Program-made: the position numbers and the translations under genes
Assembly: GCA_000165345.1 (NCBI GenBank)
Contig: CM000431.1
Coordinates: 608,001 to 672,000 of the forward strand
Direction of reading: 5' to 3'
Length of the DNA stretch: 64,000 bases
The notes under the pieces: generated by a model
What the model was told of the DNA's origin: nothing
Seen by the model: only the letters and a program-made list of their open reading frames with translations
Database searches by the model: none
Part shown: one piece after another, positions 4,637 to 36,100 of the stretch
How the letters are laid out: every line of letters begins with the position of its first letter
Numbering within the stretch: the stretch's first letter is position 1

Positions 4637-6838
4637 TTATAGAAAAGTTAATGATAGTGCTAGTATTAAGGGTGATAGTAATCCTATCAGCAAATGTTTG
4701 AACATTGTTGATTTCAAGCACCTATCATCCCTAAATAAATGAAATAAATTTTCCGTAAAAATTTCATAAAAATTCTTCCCGTTGTAATTACACATATTTT
4801 TTTCTATTTTAATTTCCACCCAACTGATCCACTGCAAAATAGGGATACTTTTAATTATTTTATACTGTTTTGAAACCTGGTCAAAACCATCCAATGATAA
4901 CCTATTACAGAAATTATTTATCTCTGCTGAAAAATATTGTTTATTACGACAAAATATCTCGTTCCCTAAAACGGAGTTCCAAATAGATGCAGAATTTTTC
5001 GCTTTGCTAATATCGAAACCAAGATTATAAATAAAATGTTTTGAATTTAAAATATTTGCAATATCTATCAAAAAATATCTTGTCTTCATTGCTATTTTTG
5101 ATAAAATACATGCATAGTAGTCTCCTTTCTTTTTATAACAACAAAAATTTAATAAAATCACCAGGAAAATTGTCCAGATTATAAATTTTCGAAAAGCTGA
5201 AGAATCCATGATAAAAATAATAAATAGAATGATGGGAATAATAAAAACCAAAATGCTGAAATTTTTTGTTGAAAGAATAATTGAGAAGGCAATTAGAAAT
5301 ATTTTATTCATTATCTTAATAGAATTAATAATATCTTTGTATGCGCTACTATTCTTTTGAACATTAAATAGTTTAATGAATATATTAATGCTTGAAGTAA
5401 CAAAAAATGTGATGAAGAAGACCACAAAAGTTAATGCAATAAACAAGGGCCACAAGTTTGTATATTCGGATTCAGATAAATTGGAGCAATCAAATAAAGA
5501 ATTACCAATTTTATCAAATAAATGCACAACCAAGAGTATTATTGGAGCAGTTATTGAAATCAAACAAGCTATTAGAATAATTCCAATAAGTAGAATACTG
5601 CTTTCTTTTGATATTTGTGCTAATATTCCGATCGAAAATGATATTAACATCAGAATAATTGGGACTAAATAAATACCAAAGTTTAGTGTTGAAAAATATG
5701 ATGTAAAATAGTATTTGTTACTTGATTGATGCAATTCATCATGAAGGTTACTTTGAATCTTAACAATACCTTCTAAAAATTTATAAATCTCAAATTGTTG
5801 AATTGGAAATATTGAAATGAACTCGTTCGCATCATTGCTGTCCTTAAAATGATCCCAAATTTCATTATTCGCTATCGAAAATTCATCAACCAAAGAAAGT
5901 GTAAATGAATTGATATTATTTTGCAAAAATCGACTGTGAGGTTTATACGATCCTTTATTAAACGCTTGCCTGAAGCAATTATTTGGCAAATTAATGGTTT
6001 TTAAAAGCTTACCTTGCAATTGAATCCCAAAAATTCCTTGTAATTATAGATATAGGAGGATAGGTGAAGCTTGATTCAACTTCCCTAATAACAGAATTGG
6101 GGAAATCTTGATTAGTTTGTAGTCCATCCATAGATTCTACTAAAAGTTAGAAATTAACATACATGATTGAATCAACTTACCGATGTCAATAAAGACTCTT
6201 GTTGGAGTTAACGATAATATTTCAATACAAATTGCAGTTCGTATTCTACCATTGTATTTTAGCAGTCTTTGGTCAATTGCCAGATCCTTCAGAAATGAGT
6301 TAATTCCCATTGAATTTGGAATGTTCGAATCCGTAAAAAGTAGAATTATGTCTTTCGAAGTCCAGTAAATCTTTTCAAAATGTTTGGAAAGAGGAATAAT
6401 TAAGCCTGCTGCACTACCCAGTTCATCTTTTCCATCTTTATATTTCCATGGAAAGGAAATAGAAATTATTATTACTTCTGAAGAATCGCCTCTTTTTGAT
6501 GGAACTACAGCTGCAATATACCCGGAACTTAAGAGGTATAAATCTTTATATCTGTATGAAGAGAAGTTTTTATTTTTTATTATATCAATGTCTCCAGAAT
6601 CATCGCATTCAATGCAGTGAGTGTCCCTTGCGATAGAATTAATTATGCTTTGCGCAACCAATTCAGCGTTACCCGATTTTTGAGAAGTTAGTATCTCTTG
6701 GGTTACTTTCTTATATTCAAGTACGATGCTGCGGTCAACTGTAGCCTTATTTACTCCTTCAGAAAACCCACTTTCTTTTACTTGCGTAACTTTATCAAAG
6801 CCTGGAAGAGATAAAAGAAATAAAACCCCAATAAGCAA
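4637..6838 (-). CDS. GAA1: GPI-anchor transamidase component GAA1 (GPAA1). Three exons: complement(6181..6838, 6013..6139, 4637..5969).
   Basis: Two track ORFs (6140..6838 and 4637..6019) are joined by two micro-introns of 41 and 43 nt, with donors GTAAGT and GTAAGC and acceptors TTTTAG and TTCAG. Exon 1 has an N-terminal signal anchor and a luminal domain matching GPAA1 (KHFEKIYWTSKDIILLFTD vs [21 protein letters not shown]). The C-terminal half is multi-pass membrane. Reading phase is conserved across both junctions and the total is 706 codons. Confidence 0.6.
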
Positions 6839-11342: not shown

Positions 11343-11409
11343 TATATCTTTTTTATTCCCAATGAATTATGCCGCCGCAACTATTCTAAATCACTTTGAA
11401 TTGAATAAT

Positions 11410-14900: not shown

Positions 14901-17354
14901 GCAATCATCACTTTTGGAAATTTGCACATCCTGCGAAATACGTGAAATTGAATCGAGGTTTATCAATGGCTTTGAACTATCAGAACTTGACTTATTCTCA
15001 ATTTTTGAGGCTCTTGGGGAGAAAGTAGCTGAACTAGAATCATCTATTGCATCTTCAAATGTTTCGTCTAAAGGGACAAACTTTGTAGTATGAGATGTAG
15101 TAAATACCAAGGACCTAGTTTTGGAATTTGTAGGTGAATTTCCATTTTGTTCTGGAGACTGTACCGCGTCAAAGAACTGTTGTTGACGCTCAAGCAAGTT
15201 TAGGAATGCTGCAGGAGTCTGAGGATCCATAGTTTTCTCAATGCGCCTAACGGAAGTTAAAAGAGCAGTATTATGTCTCGCACTCTCGGTTGCAACCGCA
15301 GGAAGAGCCAGTTCTGATGAATTTGTAATTCTTTCGTGAGAAACGTGACTTAAGTTATCGAGTTGGTATCTATTAGAACGAGAAATAAATTGTGGTAGAG
15401 GTTTCCAGAGCCATAGTGACTTTCCTCTTTCATTCGAATCAGAATACTTTGAATTCTGAACAATTGGCTTAGGAAGCACACTATTGATTAATTTGTTTGA
15501 AGAAAGCCCATTGCCTAAAACAATTGACGAGTTTTGATTTGAAGGCTTTCCAGATTGCCCACCACCAAGTATATTCTGTAGCTGAATTGAGCTATTATTC
15601 AGTTGAGAATTTCCTGGTAAATTTGTTTGACCAATTGCAGAATTCGAAACCCCAGAAGTCAAAGATGACCATGATTGATTAGGAGGATTAACGCTTGAGA
15701 ATCCAAATGACTGAGATAAAGAAGTTGATTGGCCAAATAAGCTTGAACTGGATGCGTTTGCATTATTGTTATTCAGCGTATTCTGAGGTTGAGTGGAACT
15801 AAATAGACTATTTGGAGAGTTACTAAACAAGCCTGACGAGCTAGGCAGCGTTGAACCAAATAAGCTTGTAGATAAATTAGCTCCACTTGTACTACCAGAA
15901 CCTGCACCCAAATTAGAGCCACTTAATGTTTGATTACTACCAAATAATGGCTTCATTGAAAGCGAAGAATTTGACAAAGAAATTTGAGGTTGAGTATTTG
16001 AATTTGAATTAAAAAGAGTCAAGCTGGCACTATTTGAAGTTGTCGAACTCCCCCCAAACAAGGAACCAGAAGTCTTTAGAGAGCTATCTAGTGATCCTAA
16101 ATTGGATGGCTGCCCAAACAAATTACCACCGTTTAAACTGCTAATACTTGTACCTAAGTTGTTGCTGTTATTACTATTATTAATAATACCATTATTGCTA
16201 TTGCTAGAGAATAAACTGGGAGTGGAGAATAATCCTGAGTTTGAACCACTCGTTGAAGATTGAAGTGGAAATGAATTTGTATTGTTCGAAGCACCAAATA
16301 ATCCATTATTTGATACAAACTGAGTATTACCTATGTTTGATTGAGAGTTTTGAAGCCCCTGACCTAGAATTGAAGTTTGGCCCAAACCTGAGGACGAGCC
16401 ACTAGAACCGAAAAGAGAGTTTTGTGGTGTCGTTGATGATATAAAAGATGACTGAGGTTGTCCAAAAATTGAGTTTGAGATAGAAGGTCCTTGGGAGTTA
16501 GAAGCAAACCCGCCAGCGTTAGAAAATGAGCTATTCCCAAAACTATTGGTGCTTGTGGTAAAATTCGTATTGATGGATGATAAACTATTTGCAGGCCCTC
16601 TTTTTTCTTGATAATCTTCCCATCTAAGCTCTTCAACTGACTTTTTCTGATCAATGTCCTTCTGATATACAATAGACATGATTCTGGCATCGCTATCTCT
16701 ATCGACTACGGGTTGAAATGTAATCCCATTTGTGCCTTTCTTTGCCCCAAAAATATTCGAATTTGTTCCCATAGTGCCTCCGAAGGGCGAAGCTGAGGTG
16801 TTACCAAAAGTCTGAATGGGCATTGACCCAAAAAGACCACTATTGTTTTGTTGCCCAAAAAAGCTTGATGGGTTGCTTTGAGATGACTGGCTTCCAAAGC
16901 CTCCAGAAGTTCCAAATGAGTTTTGAAAAGAGCCAAAGCCTCCAGAGTTATTTGCCGAGCTAGAATTAAAAAACCCAGAGCTAGAACCTATCGTAGAAGA
17001 GGAACTTGAGCCAAACATAGTTGGTTGTGTAGAACTTATTTGCTGATTACCTCCAAACGTACTCATTGATTGGCCAAATAAGCCATTGGAAGATTGACCA
17101 AAAACTGAAGATTGCCCAGTATTTCCAAACCCGGAATTAGAAGAGCCAGTACTTCCAAATAGCCCAGGGCTCGCATTTCCTCCAAATAGGGAAGTTGATG
17201 AATTAAACAATCCCGTTGAAGCCGGTTGTACCGTATTAATATTTTGTGATACCCCTTGCTGGCCGATCCCAACTCCAAAAGAGTTGGATGTTCCAAATAA
17301 TCCTCCAGAAGACTGTTGGTTTTGGTTTGAACCAAACCCTCCTCCACCAAGCAT
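11937..17354 (-). CDS. Nup98-Nup96 nucleoporin precursor. N-terminal GLFG/FG repeats, an autoproteolytic domain ending in HF|SKY, then a Nup96-like alpha-solenoid.
   Basis: Single 1805-aa ORF. The first ~600 aa are FG/GLFG low-complexity. The motif ...KFEVTHFSKYGFL is the Nup98/Nup145 self-cleavage site and lies at about 14205..14225. The C-terminal ~900 aa are helical and Nup96-like. Confidence 0.85.
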   Translation of the reverse strand: MLGGGGFGSNQNQQSSGGLFGTSNSFGVGIGQQGVSQNINTVQPASTGLFNSSTSLFGGNASPGLFGSTGSSNSGFGNTGQSSVFGQSSNGLFGQSMSTFGGNQQISSTQPTMFGSSSSSTIGSSSGFFNSSSANNSGGFGSFQNSFGTSGGFGSQSSQSNPSSFFGQQNNSGLFGSMPIQTFGNTSASPFGGTMGTNSNIFGAKKGTNGITFQPVVDRDSDARIMSIVYQKDIDQKKSVEELRWEDYQEKRGPANSLSSINTNFTTSTNSFGNSSFSNAGGFASNSQGPSISNSIFGQPQSSFISSTTPQNSLFGSSGSSSGLGQTSILGQGLQNSQSNIGNTQFVSNNGLFGASNNTNSFPLQSSTSGSNSGLFSTPSLFSSNSNNGIINNSNNSNNLGTSISSLNGGNLFGQPSNLGSLDSSLKTSGSLFGGSSTTSNSASLTLFNSNSNTQPQISLSNSSLSMKPLFGSNQTLSGSNLGAGSGSTSGANLSTSLFGSTLPSSSGLFSNSPNSLFSSTQPQNTLNNNNANASSSSLFGQSTSLSQSFGFSSVNPPNQSWSSLTSGVSNSAIGQTNLPGNSQLNNSSIQLQNILGGGQSGKPSNQNSSIVLGNGLSSNKLINSVLPKPIVQNSKYSDSNERGKSLWLWKPLPQFISRSNRYQLDNLSHVSHERITNSSELALPAVATESARHNTALLTSVRRIEKTMDPQTPAAFLNLLERQQQFFDAVQSPEQNGNSPTNSKTRSLVFTTSHTTKFVPLDETFEDAIDDSSSATFSPRASKIENKSSSDSSKPLINLDSISRISQDVQISKSDDCRTSIGRVVNESNNAARTPYLNQHRNSVNSISAVSNERQARSSIGLTTPRPITRRPDQLIDSIPSDLVKSYIRKQKEFVIESLTPILTKHDYFCIPSIELLKTFSEERLAVVEDFKIVREGVGEIVWPGVTDLRGINLDSVVSIEPLCVSVYGDGDSSIPIGEGLNKKAIITLKNCKPKRAIPSKDPQEIDEFNSNRVKQIKSYTEQMGARFISLDTITWEWKFEVTHFSKYGFLSEDNSLSHFKEPCSALATKETNFNVSDQENHFLRSSKQEQYKGHFFVMKSQYNFSLYSEIKSIVEKDNSLKKSAYNGICFRSGMYIGSNSFVVVPHRSFRKDIQGVSDYNTSITLLRINNLTGSVTKDSINNLGYSRRLISAWFRLYFEIIGNKTSNNCSGVSIESIIKLIFLLWSITKNEVEIYSHLSGFKFNSLNFERLKYFEQTFGLVGGIMELIIKNLNNPSEKRFESNLRELISWWMKIVINDIPVIRFGDDKQNSQCLHEERISLLLNNIVNGNLLDLVRNGPSLSYLTIPRTASLFLSIGNNKTSILQMMENMQWWSKIGLVSDLTSYSNRIYKTISNIDASADGFLYEWQNNVFLSANYSTNSKLGERLLKMKNASLIDNTQKLGKLIDSDDPINISPSEVGKKQVFEQIQFQIIKFFFGDENSRQVELFRLNNFGSIKFSSFNWLIARALTFYHNSICNSNEITPTNKLNLILIEELEILGLWEWAVFIIMHTNMNSDFYYLLNCVIMRNIQENPDYSNPEDYLNDEKWKFLVDKLGIPLNWLLEAIIYKLESSGNILQSLKCTMYLINRLQENKYKAGDLLFHRSDHVSAINSLAISAAKKLFYAPLLPNTLIEISALTKCVIIGKKPLYKIRNYFDAYLLNTNENLQLIFSAYEEQIVTDIWHALKSIITISSQYMKFATRLIESETYYIDQDELKIIFTNLEKFTALREDTVRYSFEQCINNIIDNYCWDIVLDAIGIAKH
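15500..17354 (-). repeat. Coding low-complexity FG/GLFG repeat region of the Nup98 moiety.
   Basis: Many repeated GLFG, FGxxS and SxFG units. They generate spurious shadow ORFs on the same strand in other frames (16364..16690, 16706..16936, 17063..17350). Confidence 0.7.
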
Positions 17355-17449
17355 TTTGTTTCAATTAATTGGGAAAAATTCCGTGTCGTATAGCATCTGC
17401 CCCACTTAAGGTTGCCGCTTTATGGCGGTGTTTTTATACTATAGACATT

Positions 17450-18540
17450 CTAAATCTTTTTTTTTAGTGCTCTTTCTCGGATATATTTGGTCTGTGATAT
17501 TCTTATTTTATTCCAAATTGGTCGAGGGATCATATTTGCCTGAATACAAAGTATCAAAAAGTAGTTACACTCTTTATTTTACTTACTATTAATAGTTGTA
17601 TTCGATGACCAAAATAAGGAACAACCGTCGAGTAAACCGATGGAGTTTTTTTAAGCATCTTTATAGATTCAACAGAAAACCTAAGAAACCAATCAAGATG
17701 CTATAAAAATAATAGCTTACTACTTACCTTTTTGTTGAAATTGTGAACAAGGTTTCTCTTTTGGCTTTTGATAGTTTAGTGGTAACTAGTAAAGGAGTAT
17801 GGCATTGGATTGTGATATTCTCGGACTCACATTCCGCTCGTAAACTTCTACATAGAGATTCGGCGACACTTTTTGTAGCGGCATACGCGGAATAGAGAGG
17901 GTCAGTCTGAAGCTGTGACGACCCACTTCCTATACACAAAATGGCTCCCCGATCCCTAAGCATATGCATTATTTATTTAGTAAAGTTTGAAAGCACTACT
18001 CACCTCTTTTTCATGTAGCTGTAAACAATGCGAGTCATCATTAATACAGACCTAACATTCACTTCTATTAATTCATTAATTAGATCCAAACTAGTCTCTT
18101 CAAAATATTGTGCATACGGATATGAGATGCCAACATTATTTATTAGAATCCCAACATCATCAATTGAATTCAAATATCCGCAAAAATTTGAGTAACAAGT
18201 CGGGTCAGTAAAATCCATTAAATAATACCTTATTTCTTGATTTGAATCTGGTTTTTTCAAGGATAGCAACTAGGGCAAGAATTAGTATTTTTGAAGCATA
18301 TTTAAAGCTTACCTCATTTACAACATTTTGCAGCTTTTCTCTATTTCTTCCTATTAAAATTAAGTTTAAATCTTCTTTAAACAATTCCTTTGCCATTGCT
18401 TTTCCAATTCCGTCGCTTGCGCCAGTTATAATTGCCCAACTTCCAAATGAAGTAAGTTTTTTCTCAGGTCTGTTGAGCAAGAGAAATAATTTGTTTATGG
18501 CCATAGAAAGATAATTCATTATTAATTTAATAAAATTCAA
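17450..18540 (-). CDS. Very-long-chain 3-oxoacyl-CoA reductase (KAR/HSD17B12/IFA38 family SDR). Five exons: complement(18313..18540, 18004..18269, 17728..17955, 17587..17680, 17450..17539).
   Basis: Three track fragments lie in different frames. Four micro-introns of 43, 48, 47 and 47 nt rejoin them, with donors GTAAGC, GTGAGT, GTAAGT and GTAAGT. SDR motifs: TGASDGIGK, NNVG, and YSAYAATK (YxxxK). The C-terminus ...IPRPIWNKIRISQTKYIRERALKKKI matches the KAR tail (LPSWIYLKIVMNMNKSTRAHYLKKTKKN). Total 302 codons. Confidence 0.65.
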
Positions 18541-18668
18541 GCAAATAATTCCTGCTATTTTACTAATATTAACTCATTGCGGCAGGAATTTTACTTAAGC
18601 ATAAATTCATTTGATCTTTTTTTTCTTAATCTGGAAGATGTTAACATTTATTTTCATATACTTTAAAC

Positions 18669-19100
18669 TTACTTTAGATCTTCTAATTCTGTCTCTTGAA
18701 CCTTAACAAAAAGGCAAGTGCAACATTTATACAAGATTATCAAAGTCATCCCCAATATAACCAACGACAACAAAACAAGACATAAATAAATCCACCATGG
18801 CCATGCTGATGCACAAATATTTGACATGGTATTTTGTCGGCAAGATGTAATTGAATCCACTTTTGATGTACAGAAAAATTCTGAACTACTCGAAACTTTA
18901 CAAGGCGAACAAAACTTAGAAAGCTGGCATTCGCCACAAGACTTAATTGATCTGCAAATATTAAATATATCGACTTCGGTCAATTCATTGCGACCGAAGG
19001 CAGAAGTTCTATTCACTAAGATGCTGCTACTCATGTTTATTTTAAAAAAATTTATGGGGGGGGGTGAAGCAAGATTCAATACCGCAGATAAAATATACAA
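18669..19100 (-). CDS. Small cysteine-rich single-pass membrane protein with a PSI-like cysteine motif.
   Basis: The 143-aa ORF has CRSIKSCGECQLSKFCSPC...C...C followed by the hydrophobic helix WWIYLCLVLLSLVILGMTLIILY. The start is uncertain: no clear signal peptide, and an upstream exon is possible. Confidence 0.3.
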   Translation of the reverse strand: MYILSAVLNLASPPPINFFKINMSSSILVNRTSAFGRNELTEVDIFNICRSIKSCGECQLSKFCSPCKVSSSSEFFCTSKVDSITSCRQNTMSNICASAWPWWIYLCLVLLSLVILGMTLIILYKCCTCLFVKVQETELEDLK

Positions 19101-19133
19101 TTAGCTGAAAATCTATGTAAAACAAAATTCAAA

Positions 19134-20279
19134 CTAAGAACTAACTATAGGTTTGTTTTTCTTCTTCTTCTTCACTGAAAGTGGAGTTGAAAGAATTGAA
19201 TTAATTTCTTCATCAGTTACCTTGAATTCCGAGTCACAAATATTTTCCTGTGTGAATTGTAGGCCGGAAATGCGTTTTGAACCATTTGGAAGCAGTAGAA
19301 GTGTACATTTAAAGCTCGCAACGTACTCACCTTGTCTCTCTGTTATTACAGGGTATGAATACAAAAGGTTATGTCTAATGCATTCAGAAACTCCCAATCT
19401 TGCAACCTTTTCATCTGATATCATATTTAACGAAAACGGTAATGTAGGGAATCTTTTGTTAACTTCACTTAGAAATTGCCTTGGAATCGGGCTTTTCAAG
19501 TTATAGTTAGTTTCAATAGCGCGTTTAAAAACTGTGCTTCTGTAATCAGACTCCCTGGGAACGCCTTCTCCACTGCTTACTAGAATATCCAATCCATAAA
19601 CTTCATTTTCCTCGAATGTGAATTCATCAACTTTTTCATCTAGTGTCTCTTTTGAAATGATTACACGATTTCCATCAATAACATGTCTTTTTAGCTGATG
19701 TGACAAAACTCCCTGAACCATATTGCAGTTAAATTCCTTAACAGTCTTGTTAAGCATAGATGTTACATATGTGTTAGTGTTTCCAGGTTTTACAGTTCGA
19801 ATAGCCACTTCCATCGCAGTATTTGCTGCCTTTAAAACATCCGCTTGTTTTCCTGAAATACGTTCAGTCCCAATAACAATGGAATGCGAGCAAATACTAA
19901 TGAATCCATCTATATGAGCGCCGAGGTCAATCTTAATTAAGTCACCATTCTTTAACTTTAGGCTTTCTGCAGGCAAAGGGGAAAAATTGCCACAAATTTC
20001 ATTTACAGAAATGCACGTAGGAAATGCAATACCCTTATCCAATTTCCTGCCACCCTCTTTTTTGTTATAAACTGAACTTGACTTCTCCTCGATCATAGAG
20101 TCGCTTTTCCTGCAAATTTCTGAGATATCTGCGCCATCCAAACATAATGTTATTACATACTGAAGCGTTGAATTTACTATCTCCGCTGCTGTATAGTATT
20201 TAGTAACAACCTCTGAATTGGATATTGACTCAGAAATGCAAAAGTCGTCTACGTTCTCAAGCCCTTCTTGTTTTGACAT
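19134..20279 (-). CDS. PA2G4: Proliferation-associated protein 2G4 / EBP1, a non-catalytic methionine-aminopeptidase-like M24 fold.
   Basis: The 381-aa ORF matches EBP1: KGIAFPTCISVNEICGNFSP, KIDLGAHIDGFI, GKQADVLKAA, MVQGVLSHQLKRHVIDG, LVSSGEG and a lysine-rich tail. Confidence 0.85.
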   Translation of the reverse strand: MSKQEGLENVDDFCISESISNSEVVTKYYTAAEIVNSTLQYVITLCLDGADISEICRKSDSMIEEKSSSVYNKKEGGRKLDKGIAFPTCISVNEICGNFSPLPAESLKLKNGDLIKIDLGAHIDGFISICSHSIVIGTERISGKQADVLKAANTAMEVAIRTVKPGNTNTYVTSMLNKTVKEFNCNMVQGVLSHQLKRHVIDGNRVIISKETLDEKVDEFTFEENEVYGLDILVSSGEGVPRESDYRSTVFKRAIETNYNLKSPIPRQFLSEVNKRFPTLPFSLNMISDEKVARLGVSECIRHNLLYSYPVITERQGEYVASFKCTLLLLPNGSKRISGLQFTQENICDSEFKVTDEEINSILSTPLSVKKKKKNKPIVSS

Positions 20280-20557
20280 TTTTCGTTTAAATAAAAAAAA
20301 ACTAATACAACTAACTTACTCGTCTTATCATTTCCCGCTGCAAACATTTTGTAAAAAACATACTATCAAATACTTAAATTGAACATTAGTTGTTCAAGAT
20401 TCAAAGCAACAATGGTTTATAACATTTGGCTTTAAAGTTTGACTTATTAATAAGGCTATTCTCATAAGATACCTTTGTTTGTAATGATGAGGCTAACCCT
20501 ATTTCTAAAATTAATTATGTATTCCGTAGGAATGGTCAGCTAAGTTTGAGTTGTATC

Positions 20558-23186
20558 TCAATTTTTTTTTTTGCGAATAGGCCTTTTTTGATGCTCTTTG
20601 TGTTGTTTGGATAAATTGTCAAAGTCATTATACTCAAATAACTCTGATATCTCCTTGGGAATTTCATCAATATTAGCGTTATTTTTGGAATCGGGATCAG
20701 CCGTTTCTTTTATCGTGTTGTCTTCAAAATTGTCCACAATATCTACTCCTTTATCCAAACATTGAAACTTGTGACTGTGAAATTTTCTCTTTTCGCATGT
20801 AAAATAAGATTTTAAGTCATGATCAGCGGTTAAACCTGAATGTGTATTGGATGATAAAATGTTTGAACCATTTTTTCTGCAGTTATTTAAAGATTGAGTA
20901 GATTTAGATAATAATTTAAATGATTCGAGCATTCTAGAAAAAACTCTGCATTTCGAGCCTCTAGATGCCTTAAGGTTCAAATTACAAATTACAACAATAT
21001 AGTTCTCAAGTAAATATTTTAAAATTAACTGAATATTATTTCTGCATATAAAGTCAAGCATTTCAATTACCACGCTTTCCAATATTGAACCCTCTCCTCT
21101 ATTTCTTGGCACCTTTAATTGGTCCATTATTAAGAAAATGTACTTAAAAATATCATGTTTAGTGAATAGACGGTAATAAAAGTCGTCTCGAGTTCCCAGG
21201 CAAGTTCTCAAGAATTTAATAACTGAAATAGAAAAAATTTTATGAAATGGTCGAGTAGCGATACGTAGCAATTTTCTTGGCAATTGATTTTGAAGGATTT
21301 TGTATTTAATTCTGTAGTTGTGTTCTTGTACGCAAGTTGCGAGAATATCGCAAAATAATACTCTTGCAGAATACAATGGATTGAATTCAGTAAAAATTAA
21401 AGAGTCGTTGAGCAAGCTATCTATTAATCTGTCTAGAATGCCCATATCATAAAATAAAGAGAGTGAATCATCTCTTTCTGGAACATCCATAGTCTTAGGG
21501 TCCAATATTCGTTTAAAAATTGCACAAATTTGCATTTGGATGCTCTCACTCCTTGAATTAATAAAAATTTCGCATAGAGTTCCCCATAGTGAATGAAATA
21601 AGTTAGATTTGTCGGATAAATTTTCCATTTCTTTAATGCTTTCTTTTGGACTATTTTGAAGAGCATCATCAGCATATAAAATATCGACATTCGAGCCATA
21701 TATATTAGTTTCTTTATGAACTTTAAAATATTGAGAAGTTGATTCATGAATAGCGTGTCTCAAAAGACCAGGATTAATTTCGCAAACCATTGAATATATT
21801 TCAACTGCTAAATCAATTGGCCTTATATTAGAATAATTTATGAATGATAAATCATTAGTATTTGAAAAATTTTTATGATCATCATTTGAAGTGGATAATT
21901 CTAACATCTGCCTAGCTCCAATACAATTTTCATTTAAATATCCACAAAACTCACATAAAATATTGTTAACTTTAAGATTTATGAATATTTGATGTCGTTC
22001 ATAAATCGAAAGCATTGGGTTTTGTTTTAAAACCGTCAATACTGCATGAATAAATTTTGCAACAAGAAAGTTTTTCTGAATGTTTTCCTTGAGATATTTC
22101 CAAATATCGCTTGTAGTTACGATCATACTAATTATCGATGAAAAATTATTATTAATTATTGTTGCTATTCTTTGAAGGCTTTGCTCATCAAGATGCCTAG
22201 GCATAACAACATCTCTTAAATACATTAACCTATAGTTAAGATGAATTGTTCGAACTTCTGGTAAAGGAACAACACTGTGAAATTTAACATTTTCTAAAAA
22301 CTTCTTGTGAGAAAATTTTATTTTATAATTTTCCAATGTCTCGTCATATTCGCAAGCTTTAAAAAATTTTAAATAATATTCATCGCTTAATAAGATTTCA
22401 AATACTTCATTGAAGCTACTGTAGAAAACTATTATTCTACGAAGTACTTGGAATATTTTATGTAGCCCAATCAAATCAGAATTTTGTTCAAATTCTTCCA
22501 TTAGATTAAAAAGTGAATCAAAAAATTCTCTACTTAATAGATCCATAACAATATTTTCAGAATTAATATTGGAATCAAGTTCTAGATCATCAATTATTTG
22601 ATCTATATTACTTGAAGTTGGCCTCTCTAATAGTGAATAGCCCGTACTTTCTTCTGGTAATTCTGCTTCTAATAGGTCAACGCACAGATGCGGAACTAAA
22701 GAAGTGATCATGTTCCATATTGAATTACAACTTTCTGAATGCTGGAAACTTAATGCCCTGTATAGATCTGAATTTAGTCCATCCTGCCAAGTAATAATAC
22801 TTTCTTTTTGATGGCAATACTCTCGATTCAAGTCAATAGGAGTGTTTACTAATTTAACTATATTATAGTTTTCTATTTCTAGTAAATCCTCAATATTTTT
22901 TCTTTGTGAGTGCAGTTCTTTCTCAAAATTTGGATCTTCGTCACTTAAGACCTAAAAAAGTAAATAAAAAAACGGTTATTTATATTAAGCTTACCAAAAT
23001 ATTAAACTTATCATTATCCTTGTTTAATTTTAAAAAGCCAGTTCCGCAGTCAATCCAGTTACCATTTTCAGGATTTACTTCGTAAAGTTTAACCCTACGG
23101 TATTCCAATGGCCATGCATTAAAACAATAAACTTTATGCTCTGGGATTGAAATGTTTTTTATAGACTCCAGCTCTGAAAAAGCCAT
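20558..23186 (-). CDS. Serine/threonine-protein phosphatase 4 regulatory subunit 3 (PP4R3/SMEK/Psy2). Two exons: complement(22995..23186, 20558..22951).
   Basis: Exon 1 encodes the EVH1/RanBD-like start ...YRRVKLYEVNPENGNWIDCGTGFL (compare [22 protein letters not shown]). A 43-nt intron (GTAAGC...TTTTTAG) joins it in frame to the 798-codon exon 2 (...ESIITWQDGLNSDLYRALSFQ vs DTLIVWSEAENYDLALSFQ). The rest is armadillo-like. Confidence 0.65.
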
Positions 23187-23648
23187 AATTTGTCCATTTT
23201 ATACAGAAATAAATTAACTATGCGGCATGCTTGTAAAAAAAAGGGTGACAAACATTCGAATAAATTATGTGAGATTTTACATTACTTTAATTCGGAAGCT
23301 TTACCATAAATCAGAAGATAATTTTTGGCGTTATATCATAATTTAGCTCAATATAAACTATCCATGAATTCCTACAAGTCTAACAAAAAAACGTATAAAT
23401 AAATACATATTTAAATTGCAATTACACGAAAATAAACTAATTTTAAATTGAAAAATATAGAAAGATAGAAGCTATCTGAAAATATAGTAAATTATCAAAG
23501 CTGGACAATCACTTGAAGCTTTATCGATAAAACTTCTTTCGTTGAGGTGAGCACATTTCGAGAATGTCAATGATCAAAGCATAATGATTTGAGCGGCCCA
23601 AAATCTCATTTGAAAATTTATGTTTAATGAACTAATCACCTAAACGGA

Positions 23649-26600
23649 TTATGAATGATTCTTGTTTTCTAAAAATAGTTTGATCTGATCTTTAAGGCAT
23701 GTCTGAGGTATTAATTCATCCTTTGTAAGAGGAAGCCTATTAAATGGGTCTACGCCATCAGATATCAATATTCTTTCAATTACTTTTCTATCCATTATTT
23801 TTGAAGACGTTGGAAGTAATACAGGATCTTGCATAATATCCTGCATAATTGGGTCCAGAAATTCCTCCGGTATGTCTGTTTCGTCTATATTAGTCATACT
23901 CTGTCCAACTTCATTCTCTTCAAGCTCTTTCTGCAAATATTTGACAAGTTGGTTAAAGCAATCAGATTTACTTTTATTCATCAATCCTTCTCTTCGAGCA
24001 ATATGGTGTGCCTTTACAAAAGTATGAATCTTAAAATACCTCTGTTCATTTATTATTTCCAAAATCAAAATTTTAGAAAAATCTGTCTCCATTGGCTTAC
24101 ATTCAACTTTAGAATTAAATGCAAGAGTGACATAGGTCATGCAAACATTAGCCAATAGTTGCCTGGGATTAAAATTATAAGCATCGAAATTGCTTACTTT
24201 CAGTTCTAAGCACTTTGGTCCCACTAGCCGATCAAGTGTACAATTCAAGCAAGTCACAATTTGAGGCAGTATTAGTGGGGAGTCTAATATTTCAAAAGTA
24301 TAATATTCCGTAATTTTTTGCAATAAACTCGCCGACGCATGTGAAAGTTGCATATAACCTTTGCATGCATGTTCTAATCTTTCTATAGGCATTTCTTCGA
24401 TTGTACTCTCTATTTCTTCATGATTAGAACTTCTTGATTCATTGTTGGAGTTACCAAACTCATTATTATTAATACTAATAGAATTAGGAACTTGATTGCG
24501 CTTTGACTCTCTCTTTTTTATCTCTGCTAGCATTGAAAGTCCCTCCTCAAGTAGATAGTTCAGATCTGAAACGAGTAAATGAATAAATTTAGTAAATGAT
24601 TCATCTCTCTGTTTAATAAATTTATGTAACCTTTCTCTGTGCAAGTCCACTTTTAATAGAGACTCAAATAACATGATAATAGGTAATCTCAACGAGAACC
24701 GATCAAAGTATGGTGACTTTTGTACATCATTGAAAAGAGAAATTAAAGCTGGAAGAATATACTCTGCAGTAAAATCACTAGCTTCTATTCGATGCCTAAA
24801 TTGAGGAATCTGAAGAAGGTAGTGTATCCCAATTACACCTCTTTGGCACCTAATGTGAGGATTTTTGAAATAGTTTCCATAATTTATTATAAAAATAACG
24901 AATGAAATATATGAATCAAAATCGAAACCAATCAAAATTTCGTCGTTGCCCTTAATTCTTAACAATAGCTCAGTAACTGATAATACATCTTCAATTAAGC
25001 AAGATGGGAGCGATGAAAACTGTGGTGAAGGCTTACTAGATGGAGCAGTTGACTTAAGCGCTACTGCGATTCGGCCTTGTTTAGAAGCTAGTAATGTATT
25101 CCTATCACAATTCTCAACCCCATTTTCATCAAAAGAATAAATTGTTCTAAAAATAAATTGAATAAATAGAGATAAAAAATGCCAAAATGCGGAAATAGTG
25201 TTTTGATGGAAAACTGCGCATTCAAATGATAATGCCTCGCAGCTTAATTGCTCAAGATGATGGTCATTCTTATATTTATGCCCAGAAGTGAGTCCGCTTC
25301 TATAGTCATTTAAATCATTTAGAATACTCTCATATTCAAGTAATACTGGCTGCATAAAACATTTGATTGATTTACACGAAATCCAAAATATTTGAGTTGG
25401 GAATTTGATAAAGTCTTGATATTTTAGATTAATTTGATTTAAATCACTCAATTTCTTCTTTGTTAAATTTAATGCAATTTCCACCTGGTCTTTCTCGCCA
25501 AGAGTTGCATCATTTACTAAATCTCCTAAAAGATTATGAACCTCATTGCAAATATCATTTAATTGGTTAAATCTCCCGTACATATGAAAAAAACAGTCTA
25601 GTTCTGAAACCTTTTCAATCTTAACTGGCTGTAATAGTCTCAACACTATGTGTAAATAATTAATTGAAAATCCACTCGTTGAAAGACCAGAAGTTCTCAT
25701 TATTAGAGAGCGTAAGTTGTGTTGAATTTCTCGTGAATTTTGGATATTTCCAAACATTGACAAATCTGGTATTGAATTGTATATTTTTGATTTATCTTCA
25801 TTTGAAGTACATATAATGCCCATCCATTTTATTACCATTCTTCTACATTCTGTGCTTGCTTTAAGCATATTTTTTATTACTAGAGCTGAATGTTCATATA
25901 CCAACGAAAGATCTTGTTTAATCAGCATCTTACTTTGATTGATATAAGAATGAGTCTTAGATAACAATCCTGAAAAATATTTCATAATGGTAGGGTTTAC
26001 ATTTGTTTTGAAATCTTTGTCTATTGGATTTGGGCTAATAATACAACCCAAGAGAGAGTTTTGCTGTTGAACCAAACCTGATGATACCTTCGTTCCTTGA
26101 TTTGTATTAGATGACTTAATAAATGAGGGGGTTTGTGTTAAAATAAATGTAGTTTGTTTGAATTGGCTGAGAAAGATAATATTTTTTATTGAATGAAGCT
26201 TTAAGTCAGTAAATTTTCTTTGTCTAATAATATCCATTTGTCTCTCAATATAGTCGGTGAAGGTAGAAACAAATAATTTAGGATCGTTACTTTCCATTTC
26301 TTGTATCAATGTGAGAAAAAATGAATTTGGAACTGAAATTTCAAATAGATCTGAGATTGCACACTCACTGTTACATACTATTTCGAAAAGTTCAGGGCAC
26401 TGAATTATTAATGCACAATATTTGGGGAAAAATTGAGCAAGGTTTGAAATCCTTTCATTAATTTCGATTTTCTTAGGAATTGAGCTCTCATTAATAAATT
26501 TGTTATATGAATCGATCAAAAACTGAAATGCTTTAATTCTAGGTTTATTATCTGTTGTCGAGAAAAAAATTTTCAATCTATGGAAGATAATATTCTCGAG

Positions 26601-26774
26601 ATCATCGAATAATAGTGCAACCTTCTTTTCTTGAATTAACAATTCATTCTTGTAATCACTCAAAAATATCCGCTTTGTTGATGGATTTTCAACGGGGTTG
26701 TCAGTACAAATCAGTGAAACCCCAAGAAGAGCACCAATGAGTGAATTTTCAATTTCCTCCTGATTAGTTAACAT
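23649..26774 (-). CDS. UFD2: Ubiquitin conjugation factor E4 (UFD2/UBE4) with a C-terminal U-box.
   Basis: The 1041-aa ORF ends with the U-box EEFLDPIMQDIMQDPVLLPTSSKIMDRKVIERILISDGVDPFNRLPLTKDEL. The upstream part is a UFD2 core-like helical domain. Confidence 0.85.
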   Translation of the reverse strand: MLTNQEEIENSLIGALLGVSLICTDNPVENPSTKRIFLSDYKNELLIQEKKVALLFDDLENIIFHRLKIFFSTTDNKPRIKAFQFLIDSYNKFINESSIPKKIEINERISNLAQFFPKYCALIIQCPELFEIVCNSECAISDLFEISVPNSFFLTLIQEMESNDPKLFVSTFTDYIERQMDIIRQRKFTDLKLHSIKNIIFLSQFKQTTFILTQTPSFIKSSNTNQGTKVSSGLVQQQNSLLGCIISPNPIDKDFKTNVNPTIMKYFSGLLSKTHSYINQSKMLIKQDLSLVYEHSALVIKNMLKASTECRRMVIKWMGIICTSNEDKSKIYNSIPDLSMFGNIQNSREIQHNLRSLIMRTSGLSTSGFSINYLHIVLRLLQPVKIEKVSELDCFFHMYGRFNQLNDICNEVHNLLGDLVNDATLGEKDQVEIALNLTKKKLSDLNQINLKYQDFIKFPTQIFWISCKSIKCFMQPVLLEYESILNDLNDYRSGLTSGHKYKNDHHLEQLSCEALSFECAVFHQNTISAFWHFLSLFIQFIFRTIYSFDENGVENCDRNTLLASKQGRIAVALKSTAPSSKPSPQFSSLPSCLIEDVLSVTELLLRIKGNDEILIGFDFDSYISFVIFIINYGNYFKNPHIRCQRGVIGIHYLLQIPQFRHRIEASDFTAEYILPALISLFNDVQKSPYFDRFSLRLPIIMLFESLLKVDLHRERLHKFIKQRDESFTKFIHLLVSDLNYLLEEGLSMLAEIKKRESKRNQVPNSISINNNEFGNSNNESRSSNHEEIESTIEEMPIERLEHACKGYMQLSHASASLLQKITEYYTFEILDSPLILPQIVTCLNCTLDRLVGPKCLELKVSNFDAYNFNPRQLLANVCMTYVTLAFNSKVECKPMETDFSKILILEIINEQRYFKIHTFVKAHHIARREGLMNKSKSDCFNQLVKYLQKELEENEVGQSMTNIDETDIPEEFLDPIMQDIMQDPVLLPTSSKIMDRKVIERILISDGVDPFNRLPLTKDELIPQTCLKDQIKLFLENKNHS

Positions 26775-27277
26775 AGAAATTAATTTCTATTTTACATAAT
26801 TAAATCCTGCGCGCAAAAAAAAAAGAGAAAAAAAAAAAAAGAAAAAACATAGCTTTACTATTAATTTATTTTTCTAAAAAATGTCTTGGTGTTTATTAGT
26901 CAATCCCAATTATTTAATGAACTAATACATTGGAAATTATTTAAAATATAGAACACTAGTGATTAAGTTAAATTAAAAATTAAAGGAAATCACTAAATCT
27001 CATATCTAACTTAAATATTGATTTAATTTTGATATATTATTTATTCACCTGAAATTTTAAATTTGTAAAACACGTAATTAAAAAAATAGTGGCTACCGCT
27101 AATGCATTGTGACGTGCAATTAATAATTAACACGTAAATAAGATTTTTTACCCCTTTCCTTCATCGCTATTAATTTGAAAAGAATGTGTAATTGTGAATA
27201 ATATGTAAGTTTTGTGATAGTTTTGTGGTTTGATATACTCTTATTTAAAACAAGTAATGAGAACTTAAATAAAAAAA

Positions 27278-28640
27278 ATGAGTGTAAATAAAAATATTTT
27301 ATTCCCATGTATGAAAAAGGCGGAATGCAACATCTTTTGTCCAAATGAAGTTTTGAGAGAAAATATTAACTCTTATGGATCTATAGAAATTATGGATAAA
27401 ATATCAATTTTTCACATTCCTAGTCCACAAAATAACCAAAAGCCAAAAAAAATATTCGTTACTAGAAAAGAATGCTGTAAACTACTTGATATTTCAATAG
27501 ATGAATATTTATTCATTAATCAAAATTTGTGTGGATTGAAACCAATAATTAAATGCACTGGAAAGATCATTATTAAAATGTCCGTTACAAGTGTTATCAT
27601 TGCATGCAAAGATGTTTGGATTCTTAATCCGGAAAATAGCAAAACATTAGAGATCATTGAAAGGCTATTAGAGTGCACAGGATATAATATTTCGGTAGAC
27701 AACAACACTCCCAGTACAAAAGTTTCATTTGCAGATGGTATCAGCAAAGAATTCATTTCTCCTTTGGTAGAAAATTATAATTATAATTCTAGTTTAGAAT
27801 GTACTCGCAATAATTTTGAAGAAACAGAACATGCACTTTCGAGCTCAATATTAAGTACATTTACTGATATAAATACTTTGGATAATTCACATGAGTATAA
27901 AAGACAGGAATCAATCGAATGCTCTATTTCAAGTGCTACCCAAGAAAAGAATATTGATATCTACAATTACAGGTTTATTCCCACAATCAACAAAGATTAT
28001 TACTCTCATTCATTTGCTGCTGTATGCATAGAGATAGGATTAGAAGTACTAAATAAAGAATTAATTGAAAGTATTAATTGCACAAAAAATGAAGTACTAA
28101 AAAGTTGTAATATATTAATAAAGAGCAGTAAATGGTACAAATACCCTTGGAGATTTACCTTTAGTGACTTTACAAATAAAAAAATGATATCTAAGTCAGT
28201 AAACGTAAGTTTTTTCTCGTAGATTAACAATATATTGATTCCATATTTAGACGTTAGAAATTACCACTTCTATATTAATAGATTGCTTAAAGGAAATTTT
28301 GGAAGAGATTAAACAAATTAGACAAAAAGATGGAGACGAATTAGTTATTTGTATTGAAGAATGGGAAGACATTTTACACCGTTACATCCCAGCAATATAC
28401 TTGGCATCCAAAGAATTAACAGAAGTCAAATCCTCAATTACATTCAGTGACGAATTGTCAAAGGTATATCTCGACTTCCAGAGAAACGAATACATGTACA
28501 CAAACTTAAAGATCTCGCTACTTACATTATCGTGTAGCATCACCTCAGTAATTACAGGTAAGAGTGATTTTGCAAATATTAATAAAAAGTTAATTAGCCT
28601 CACAAGGAATATTCGGAATGAATCTTCTCAGTGGAATTGA
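27278..28640 (+). CDS. Hypothetical protein. Two exons: 27278..28204, 28251..28640.
   Basis: Track ORFs 27278..28222 and 28299..28640 are joined by a 46-nt intron (GTAAGT...ATTTAG), phase 0. The first ORF's apparent stop lies inside the intron. I recognise no family. Confidence 0.4.
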
Positions 28641-31237: not shown

Positions 31238-32435
31238 TTGTGCCTAATAATGAATACTATTCGACCGAATTATGGATTTATCAACTCAAGCTTTTCAAAG
31301 ACATGTATACAAAGCGTATTTAGAACAAGTAGGGGGATATGTAAAATGAACTTTAAACACTATATTAAGTTGTATAGAATTAACAACCCCACGGGATTTT
31401 GGCTTCTCTTTATTCCTACTTTTGGGAGCTTGACCCTTGCATCTAACTCATTGCTACCAAAAGCGAACATTACCGCATTGTTTGCACTTGGGTCAGTAGC
31501 TTCTAGGAGCGCAGGATGCGTAATAAATGATTTGGCAGATCGCCAATTTGATTCAAAGGTTGTTTTCCATACTTTCTTTATTCATTATCATCTGCTTTCA
31601 GGTTGAGAGAACAAAGAATAGACCGCTTGCTAACGGAGAAATGGCTTTTACCAAAGGTAAATTACACAAGTTTGGTTTTACTATTTTCATTCTAGTTTAG
31701 CGCTAATTGCTCTCATTGGGTCTTCTACAACTTCAGCGATTGTTTTGTCTAGACTTAACAGATACACAATTTATTTAGGTATTCCTTCTGTATTCTTAAT
31801 AGCAGCATACCCTTTTATGAAAAGGATAACGCATTACCCCCAGCTATTTCTAGGTTTTACATTTAATTGGGGCGTATTGCTTGCTTGGACCTCTATATAT
31901 GGTTGTATTAACCCATATCGGAGCTCGTGGTTATGTCCGATTTCATATTACCTTTCTTCTGTTTGTTGGAGCGTACATTATGATACAATCTATGCGCATC
32001 AAGATAGGTTATTTGACAAACAAATTGGATTGTTCTCGACTGCATTAAAATGGTGAGTATTTTTACCTCAATTATTCTTTATATCTCCCTTAGGAATGAA
32101 GCTACAGGAAGTCGTTTGTTTATCAATGCAATAGTTTCTGGAATATTTGCGTCATCTGCAGGCATATTTGCAAATTTAGGAGTAAGTTTCAATTACTTTG
32201 TAAAGAATGTTAATCCAAAAAGCTGGAATACCAGTTCTCTGTACTTTTATATACAGCTCATTTAATTTACCAAAGTAAAGCTACAAATTTCTTTTCCGAA
32301 CAAGATTGCAGGAAACAATTTATTATGAGTAAATATTCTGGAGTAGTGCTACTTTTAGGAATAATATTTTCTAAATATAAAGCAAGTAAAAAGCATTCCA
32401 ATAAGAGGGACTCAAATACTTTGCACAAAGGCTGA
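31238..32435 (+). CDS. COQ2: 4-hydroxybenzoate polyprenyltransferase (COQ2, UbiA family). Five exons: 31238..31558, 31602..31656, 31701..32052, 32094..32181, 32223..32435.
   Basis: Three track fragments plus two unlisted exons are joined by introns of 43, 44, 41 and 41 nt, with donors GTTGTT (non-consensus), GTAAAT, GTGAGT and GTAAGT. The spliced product aligns residue-for-residue with COQ2: NDLADRQFDSKVERTKNRPLANGE (NDxxDxxxD motif), YPFMKRITHYPQLFLGFTFNWG and YDTIYAHQDR. The C-terminus is HLIYQSKATNFFSEQDCRKQF (compare [21 protein letters not shown]). The start codon is uncertain. Confidence 0.65.
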
Positions 32436-33281: not shown

Positions 33282-33382
33282 TTTCAAAAAGTTATAGTCT
33301 AAAAACTTTAGTGTTTTAATTTGTTATTATAATTGCCTTCGAAATCCCCTCATGTTTTTTAGTTGCCGCAAGCTGTTAATAT

Positions 33383-34933: not shown

Positions 34934-36100
34934 ATGAAAAGTTTTTTTAGAAAGAGTTTAAATCCTATTCATAATACAAAGAGTGAAGCTTCACAGCAAA
35001 TAAAATCAAGTTTGGTTGCAATAAACTATCTTAGTATTAATATTGACCTCTCGAGCATTATTTTTTCAAGTGGCTACACACCATCTAGACTTGATATTTT
35101 AAATAAAGGTTTTCTTTTACTTTATTACACCGACCCCTACACTGCCACTATGGCAGCATGGTTCTTCGAAATTCAAGGAATTCCTGCTGCCACGATTTCA
35201 GGGTGGTCTCTTATTCGCATATGCGGCCCTATTACATTAGATGAAGTTACAGAAATTATATCATTCAAACCTTTTGCAATTACCTTCTTTAATTATAAGG
35301 TAAAGTATTCATGGATTGCTGTTCATGGAATTCACACAAAACAACTATTATTAAAATACATTAAGAATCAAAATTGGAATATTGTTGAGGCACTCCACAA
35401 CAGAAACTTTCAAGATGTTGTTGAAGTATTGGAAATATTCAATAATGAAGAAGTCCCAAATTGCTATAATAAATTGGAATACATGTTTGTAAGCCTTCTT
35501 GAAAAAAAAAGTTATAATATAGATAATCCGGATCAATATAGGTTACATCAAAAATTAGTTCTACTATCTAGATGTTCTAGACTAACTAATGAAATTTACT
35601 TAAATGGAGTATATATGAAAAATACCCATGAAAGTTACCAATCTCCTATTAAGAGGGATTTGCTACTTGCAATTAGAAAGTATCTATATAGTATTCCAAT
35701 TTTTACAGAAGCTTGTATATCTAAAAGCTCTCTCAAATCATTGAAAACAGAAGAATGGTGCTTAGGACTAGATGAAAAACACATATATAGAAGAGAGAAC
35801 GGGTGTTTTAATGACTGCATAGAAACAAACAGCAATTACAAAGCGCAAAGCAATCATTCTGTAAGCAGAAATAAGTTACTTGAACGCATGTTAAGGGTTA
35901 TATTGATAGAATTAATTACCCATTTCAGAGTAAAGTATAATAATAGCAAATACCCAAATATCACTGAAGTGAGTGAATTATGGAAAATTAGGTTTGGAAT
36001 AGAAGTTGACATTATTCAATTGTTCAAAATGGCGGGACTTTATGAAGAAATTAAAAATATTGTCGAAGCTACTAAAGAAATTAAAATAACAAGAGATTGA
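34934..36100 (+). CDS. Hypothetical protein.
   Basis: 388-aa ORF. I recognise no family. Confidence 0.35.
   Translation: MKSFFRKSLNPIHNTKSEASQQIKSSLVAINYLSINIDLSSIIFSSGYTPSRLDILNKGFLLLYYTDPYTATMAAWFFEIQGIPAATISGWSLIRICGPITLDEVTEIISFKPFAITFFNYKVKYSWIAVHGIHTKQLLLKYIKNQNWNIVEALHNRNFQDVVEVLEIFNNEEVPNCYNKLEYMFVSLLEKKSYNIDNPDQYRLHQKLVLLSRCSRLTNEIYLNGVYMKNTHESYQSPIKRDLLLAIRKYLYSIPIFTEACISKSSLKSLKTEEWCLGLDEKHIYRRENGCFNDCIETNSNYKAQSNHSVSRNKLLERMLRVILIELITHFRVKYNNSKYPNITEVSELWKIRFGIEVDIIQLFKMAGLYEEIKNIVEATKEIKITRD

Follow-up and report, generated by a model that had tools for sequence, protein, structure and literature searches.

A five-exon reductase gene on the minus strand

At positions 17450-18519 of the window, by which we mean the whole 64,000-nt stretch of DNA analyzed here, the minus strand very probably carries an ordinary Cryptosporidium parvum gene for a very-long-chain 3-oxoacyl-CoA reductase (3-ketoacyl-CoA reductase, KAR). 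Its five exons are separated by four short introns of the U2-type GT-AG class, and its spliced product is 294 aa long. Its features are given below in the order of the coding strand, with a slash at each exon-intron boundary.

18313..18519, minus strand: exon 1, with the ATG at 18519-18517, 69 codons, and the TGASDGIG cofactor motif
18270..18312, minus strand: intron 1, 43 nt, phase 0, GAG/GTAAGC...CCCTAG/
18004..18269, minus strand: exon 2
17956..18003, minus strand: intron 2, 48 nt (a multiple of 3), phase 2, AG/GTGAGT, with an in-frame TGA at 18002-18000 in the donor
17728..17955, minus strand: exon 3, with the catalytic residues S168, Y182, and K186
17681..17727, minus strand: intron 3, 47 nt, phase 2, AG/GTAAGT, with an in-frame TAA at 17726-17724
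17587..17680, minus strand: exon 4, FSVESIK...GHRIQLLI, with P255 and H259 invariant among homologues
17540..17586, minus strand: intron 4, 47 nt, phase 0, ATA/GTAAGT...TATTCAG/
17450..17539, minus strand: exon 5, ANMIPRP...RALKKKI, with the KKKI codons at 17464-17453 and the stop TAG at 17452-17450

Joining the five exons produces an 885-nt open frame that encodes 294 aa and ends in RALKKKI and a TAG stop; peptides encoded by exons 4 and 5 include TPSVYSTVVPYFGHR and ISQTK. The intron phases are, in order, 0, 2, 2, and 0. The donors are GTAAGC, GTGAGT, GTAAGT, and GTAAGT, and the acceptors TAG, TAG, TAG, and CAG, so that all four introns have the GTRAGY-like donor and pyrimidine-AG acceptor of the U2-type GT-AG class. 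The acceptor TAG of intron 1 is also the stop that bounds the next ORF, and this intron is the only one compatible with the CpIA model's span and length. Removing the introns restores a single frame, and the 294-aa product is colinear end to end with KARs. The initial annotation had proposed exactly this arrangement (four introns, a full-length KAR, and a KKKI tail), and we were able to reproduce it; Pfam, homology, conservation in seven species, and the exon structure implied by the IOWA-ATCC annotation all agree. We infer splicing of the KAR introns in vivo from the published RNA-seq-based annotation.

Stop codons within the splice donors

The ORF at 17724..17969 had been flagged as ending on a stop codon embedded in a splice donor, and reading the sequence confirmed this to the base. 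At the end of the ORF, the minus strand reads ...ACA AAA AGG TAA GTA..., with the octamer AGGTAAGT at 17729..17722 and the donor G at 17727. The TAA at 17726-17724 thus sits within the AG/GTAAGT of 17729-17722. The apparent ATG of the same ORF, at position 17969, belongs to the interior of intron 2, and the true start of exon 3 is at 17955. The ORF at 18000..18269 on the minus strand is likewise closed by a TGA within AG/GTGAGT, with its donor at 18003.

The mechanism that we propose is one of reading frame. As phase-2 introns, introns 2 and 3 interrupt a codon after its second base and place the donor in the frame AG/G-TAA-GT or AG/G-TGA-GT. The conserved donor hexamer then supplies an in-frame stop in both introns, and unspliced DNA presents exon-sized ORFs, every one of them closed by a stop that is in fact part of a splice signal. 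In the frame of a phase-2 intron, xAG/G TAA GT, any donor that begins with GTAA, GTAG, or GTGA gives an in-frame stop automatically. This frame arithmetic fully explains the flagged stop, and the effect, which is peculiar to no one genome, follows from intron phase in textbook fashion. Prokaryote-style ORF calling on genomic contigs of Cryptosporidium in the Logan assemblies gives exon-sized pieces of 72-81 aa (P0127, P0128, and P0131), whose ends are the donor-embedded stops: KKR for exon 2 (P0127) and STKR for exon 3 (P0128 and P0131).

Identity and fold of the spliced protein

The very-long-chain 3-oxoacyl-CoA reductase catalyzes the second step in the cycle of fatty-acid elongation at the ER, and its family includes yeast Ifa38/Ybr159w, plant KCR1/GL8, and mammalian HSD17B12, which is the same as KIK-I. 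The spliced protein matched Pfam adh_short at 6e-39. Its top sequence matches were Cryptosporidium proteins named "steroid dehydrogenase KIK-I" or "3-ketoacyl-CoA reductase," followed by very-long-chain 3-oxoacyl-CoA reductases from apicomplexans and plants, which are 38-48% identical to it across more than 90% of its length. Named relatives (KCR1, 3-ketoacyl-CoA reductase, and steroid dehydrogenase KIK-I) had E values of 1e-48 to 1e-74, while generic short-chain dehydrogenases (SDRs) in the PDB reached only 1e-17. The PDB sequence matches were all to such generic SDRs, with no solved KAR structure among them.

Like Ifa38, KCR1, and HSD17B12, the protein has the SDR Rossmann fold with the TGxxxGIG, NNVG, and S...YxxxK catalytic set. 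The classical motifs are found as TGASDGIG at residue 32, NNVG at 113, and YAATK at 182, and S168, Y182, and K186 are invariant. It also shares with known KARs the C-terminal PY.xH...P...IR.RALKK region and a lysine-rich C-terminus. What sets it apart from known KARs is the N-terminus, which is shorter by some 25-45 residues and in which no transmembrane (TM) helix is predicted. Judged by these sequence comparisons, the protein is an orthologue of very-long-chain 3-oxoacyl-CoA reductase (KCR1/HSD17B12), and its existing label, "steroid dehydrogenase kik-i," is HSD17B12-like. The Cryptosporidium enzyme would, by homology, carry out the NADPH-dependent 3-ketoacyl-CoA reduction step of the elongase cycle.

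For the C. canis orthologue (P0004), whose architecture is the same, the AlphaFold model has a pLDDT of 94.7 and contains confident helices at 232-244, 257-268, and 271-295. A PDB fold search with this model returned HSD17B13 and 11beta-HSD1, both generic membrane-associated SDRs, as the nearest structures. In the proposed gene model, the final ~60 residues would thus contribute three helices of the fold, followed by a KKXX-type tail. At the sequence level, exons 4 and 5 align with the conserved C-terminus of KARs; across 50 sequences, P255, H259, and P270 never vary, and conservation of R286 and K292 is 90% or more.

These features bear on a competing reading of the locus, in which the TAA at 17726-17724 is a genuine stop and the protein is the 234-aa product found in RefSeq, C. 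hominis, and C. tyzzeri records. That length has been deposited several times, as XP_001388111.1, CUV05123.1, and TRY52302.1 and, more recently, as WKS76984.1 and KAL5369589.1. However, seven species have conserved the exons downstream of the TAA in frame, these exons align with C-terminal residues that are invariant in KARs, and the evidence-based annotation splices intron 3. According to the structural model, a protein ending at residue 234 would be left without the three confidently predicted helices. Termination at this TAA is therefore extremely improbable in our assessment, and we retain the 294-aa product of five exons.

Conservation across Cryptosporidium

We examined the orthologous loci of C. 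canis, C. ubiquitum, C. felis, C. ryanae, C. xiaoi, and C. meleagridis and solved their splice models against the C. parvum protein. The four intron positions were identical in all seven species, with intron lengths of 43-68 nt that do not keep their value modulo 3, and the predicted proteins ranged from 288 to 296 aa. Beyond C. meleagridis, the introns were less conserved than the exons: between C. parvum and C. ubiquitum, identity was 0.79-0.90 in exons and 0.61-0.67 in introns. Exon 5 was conserved on par with the other exons. At the other end of the gene, the start Met and the open frame of exon 1 were kept in the seven species, including the first 18 codons in each of them.

Deposited gene models

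At the KAR gene, the DNA is 100% identical to the C. parvum assembly GCA_015245375.1, and positions 16400-20600 of the window match both C. parvum IOWA-ATCC CP044420.1 and CP141120.1 at 100% identity. Positions 17350-19100 correspond to roughly 628,400-630,150 of CP044420.1. Over 25.4 kb, the comparison with CP044420.1 contains a single 1-nt indel, which lies within 20600-27277 and outside the KAR gene; the window accordingly represents a C. parvum assembly or version that differs slightly.

The warning that annotations would truncate the protein at the donor-embedded TAA holds for KAR. The C. parvum Iowa II RefSeq model XP_001388111.1 (234 aa) corresponds exactly to exons 1-3, and the C. hominis and C. 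tyzzeri models end with the same ...STKR at the same place; the 234-aa form is also present in newer C. parvum records. Other species have been affected in other ways: the deposited C. meleagridis model has 265 aa and ends at exon 4, and several models from other species run through intron 4. In the IOWA-ATCC annotation, QOY42589.1 has 281 aa, is marked "partial," and spans 1028 nt. Its span and length admit only one intron solution, which has the same four introns as our model. It ends ...KIRISQ without a stop and omits TKYIRERALKKKI, the last 13 conserved codons (17450-17491, minus strand). The exact 294-aa sequence was absent from the public records of the collection that we searched.

This history resembles the documented under-annotation of C. 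parvum Iowa II (PMC4637869, PMC8744675), in which introns were missed. A reannotation raised the share of intron-bearing genes from 4.3% to 10.8% and added 451 introns (Isaza 2015, PMC4637869), and the introns of the 2022 annotation, which include the four of KAR, are stated to be 100% supported by RNA-seq (Baptista 2022, PMC8744675). The 2022 model of KAR is still marked partial, and the 234-aa form survives in other deposits. The stop-in-donor effect, the gene structure, and the under-calling of introns are thus all already known, and the newer annotation largely corrects the gene. New here are only the 13 C-terminal codons added to the best current C. parvum model.

The result is a small correction to a gene model, with nothing conceptually new. 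Its practical weight comes from the fact that the error is still spreading, with 234-aa deposits from which the ER-type tail and ~60 structured residues at the C-terminus are missing. We recommend that expression, tagging, or modelling of this candidate lipid-metabolism enzyme use the 294-aa sequence.

An upstream gene for a Cys-rich mini-protein

KAR lies downstream of a gene for a mini-protein on the same strand, at a distance of ~70-200 nt in all seven species, and the C. parvum spacer measures 71 nt. The following features lie in this region:

18591..19034, minus strand: separate neighbour gene, 133 aa, with a Cys-rich N-terminus, one strong TM helix, and a basic tail
18672-18631, minus strand: intron of the neighbour gene, 42 nt, phase 2, AA/GTAAGT, with an in-frame TAA at 18671-18669
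18574..18586, minus strand: GC-rich motif CCTGCCGCAATGA in the 71-nt spacer, 55-67 nt upstream of the KAR ATG

The ORF at 18669..19100 on the minus strand seemingly ends at the TAA within AA/GTAAGT. The second exon of the mini-protein gene consists of 13 codons and its own stop, and seven species conserve it in frame. The mini-protein had no Pfam match, and an exhaustive phmmer search returned a single relative, itself a separate 123-aa protein. The spacer motif CCTGCCGCAATGA is kept in 4-5 Cryptosporidium species at ~60 nt upstream of the KAR ATG and may be a promoter element. Similar GCCGCAA motifs, at 11372-11380 and 33363-33371 (both plus strand), precede the Rrp15 gene and the start of another gene by 20-40 nt; across the whole window, enrichment of the motif was not significant (10 matches vs. 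4.7 expected).

Deposited models for C. hominis, C. meleagridis, C. ubiquitum, chipmunk genotype I, C. felis, and C. ryanae, with lengths of 380-398 aa, join the two genes. In such a fusion, the donor at 18672 would be spliced into KAR exon 1, where an in-frame acceptor is on hand at ~18473, giving a protein of ~390 aa whose N-terminal anchor would supply the TM helix that other KARs have and the 294-aa protein does not. Against this, the acceptor used by the fused models differs in every species. Conservation is seen in the 13-codon second exon and stop of the mini-gene and in the KAR start Met with its first 18 codons, in seven species each, and also in the GC-rich motif between the genes. 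The RNA-seq-based annotation has two separate genes, and the one relative found for the mini-protein is a stand-alone homologue. On this conservation evidence we rejected a fused gene, which we consider very improbable, and we treat KAR and the mini-protein as products of separate genes.

Membrane attachment and the dilysine tail

We searched the 294-aa protein for an N-terminal TM anchor and found none; the Kyte-Doolittle mean over 19 residues peaks at 0.91. Its N-terminus is shorter than those of 11 aligned KARs, and it lacks the N-terminal TM segment that they contain. At the C-terminus, Lys occupies position -3 together with -4 or -5 in six of the seven Cryptosporidium species, the placement expected of a dilysine signal. 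The tails are KKKI in C. parvum, C. meleagridis, and C. ubiquitum, KKIKVS in C. canis, KKKET in C. felis, and KKRN in C. xiaoi; the RKKN of C. ryanae is non-canonical. Dilysine signals have been reported in 11 of 19 KCRs (PMC6411113).

From its sequence, the KKKI tail can be predicted to mediate ER retrieval. How a KKXX signal would act is uncertain because the protein has no stretch that passes as a transmembrane helix. Membrane association of KAR could be supplied by its C-terminal helices or by elongase partners. A more elaborate scenario would have Cryptosporidium KAR lose its N-terminal anchor, with the genus-restricted mini-protein representing a split-off or recruited anchor or partner, or being joined to KAR in a minor chimeric transcript, and with KKXX acting on a peripherally attached enzyme. 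We consider this speculative scenario very improbable.

Donor-embedded stops across the window

The initial annotation had extended the stop-in-donor observation to two further sites, with differing outcomes. Both are introns of other genes:

6137..6180, minus strand: intron 2 of the Gaa1 gene, 41/44 nt, phase 1, donor at 6180, TCG/GTAAGT...TTTTAGTAG/, with a read-through stop TAG at 6142-6140
28205..28250, plus strand: intron, 46 nt, phase 0, AAC/GTAAGT, with a read-through stop TAG at 28220-28222, 15 nt into the intron

At 6140..6142, a TAG had been described as part of an acceptor, and the stop of the ORF at 6140..6838 on the minus strand is indeed the first AG of a tandem TAGTAG acceptor. 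This acceptor is of the NAGNAG type, so that switching between the two AGs adds or removes a single residue; the annotated length of 717 aa is consistent with use of the second. At 28204..28210, the same effect as in KAR had been claimed. The AAC/GTAAGT at 28205 is a good donor, but the intron is in phase 0, and the ORF at 27278..28222 stops at the TAG of 28220-28222, outside the GTAAGT.

The window is AT-rich (~32% GC), and its enrichment in GTAAGT is weak, with 35 occurrences on both strands vs. ~24-30 expected. A GTRAG[TC] context was present at 5 of the 62 open stretches of at least 80 codons that end in TAA or TGA, against a background of 1.35% (binomial P = 0.0015). With the threshold at 60 codons or more, there were six matches, four of which are real introns and two of which are antisense to genes.

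We used the gene spans and product lengths of the IOWA-ATCC annotation to constrain exact exon-intron solutions. Solutions were obtained for 8 of the 30 listed genes and comprised 19 introns of 41-49 nt each, located between 1937 and 51558. Seven of the eight solutions were unique; the gene for a 468-aa product had seven, of which the best-ranked one was used. The 19 introns were distributed over phases 0, 1, and 2 as 8, 5, and 6. A stop occurs at +1 in all six phase-2 introns, and the other 13 reach a stop 5-108 nt further. The claim that annotations stopping at the first in-frame stop would truncate proteins systematically is thus borne out for KAR but overstated as a generality, since the stop falls within the donor in just 6 of the 19 introns of the window. 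With 8 of 30 genes containing introns vs. ~10.8% genome-wide, the window is intron-dense for this genome.

The identical phenomenon is on record in another organism. In Yarrowia lipolytica, every phase-2 intron acquires a stop from its GTGAGT or GTAAGT, and the stop can also come from a TAG acceptor (Mekouar 2010, PMC2911113). GTGAGT dominates there, whereas the phase-2 donors of the window are GTAAGT or GTAAGC in four of six cases and GTGAGT in two.

The Yarrowia pattern has been interpreted as a fail-safe (PMC2911113), and donor-embedded stops could by the same logic have been selected here so that transcripts retaining an intron terminate and are degraded, or retention of intron 3 could be regulated and yield a tail-less reductase. 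Read-through of any of the 19 introns in the window meets a premature stop, and the three with a length divisible by 3 (42, 48, and 45 nt) each contain one in frame. However, AT-rich introns of 41-49 nt with a GTRAG donor are expected to hold stops without selection, and 19 introns are too small a sample to test for depletion. We consider selection or regulated retention unlikely, and either would supplement the explanation by intron phase, not replace it. Intron phase thus remains our account of the flagged stop.

A naive scan for donors and acceptors with flanking open frames returned 167 candidates, most of them false; one example, at 35489..35541, lies inside an intronless gene for a 388-aa product. 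Donors outside the consensus also occur in the window: the UbiA-family gene, which has a unique solution for its 338-aa product, uses GTAGCT (31496-31501, plus strand) and GTAAAT (31657-31662, plus strand).
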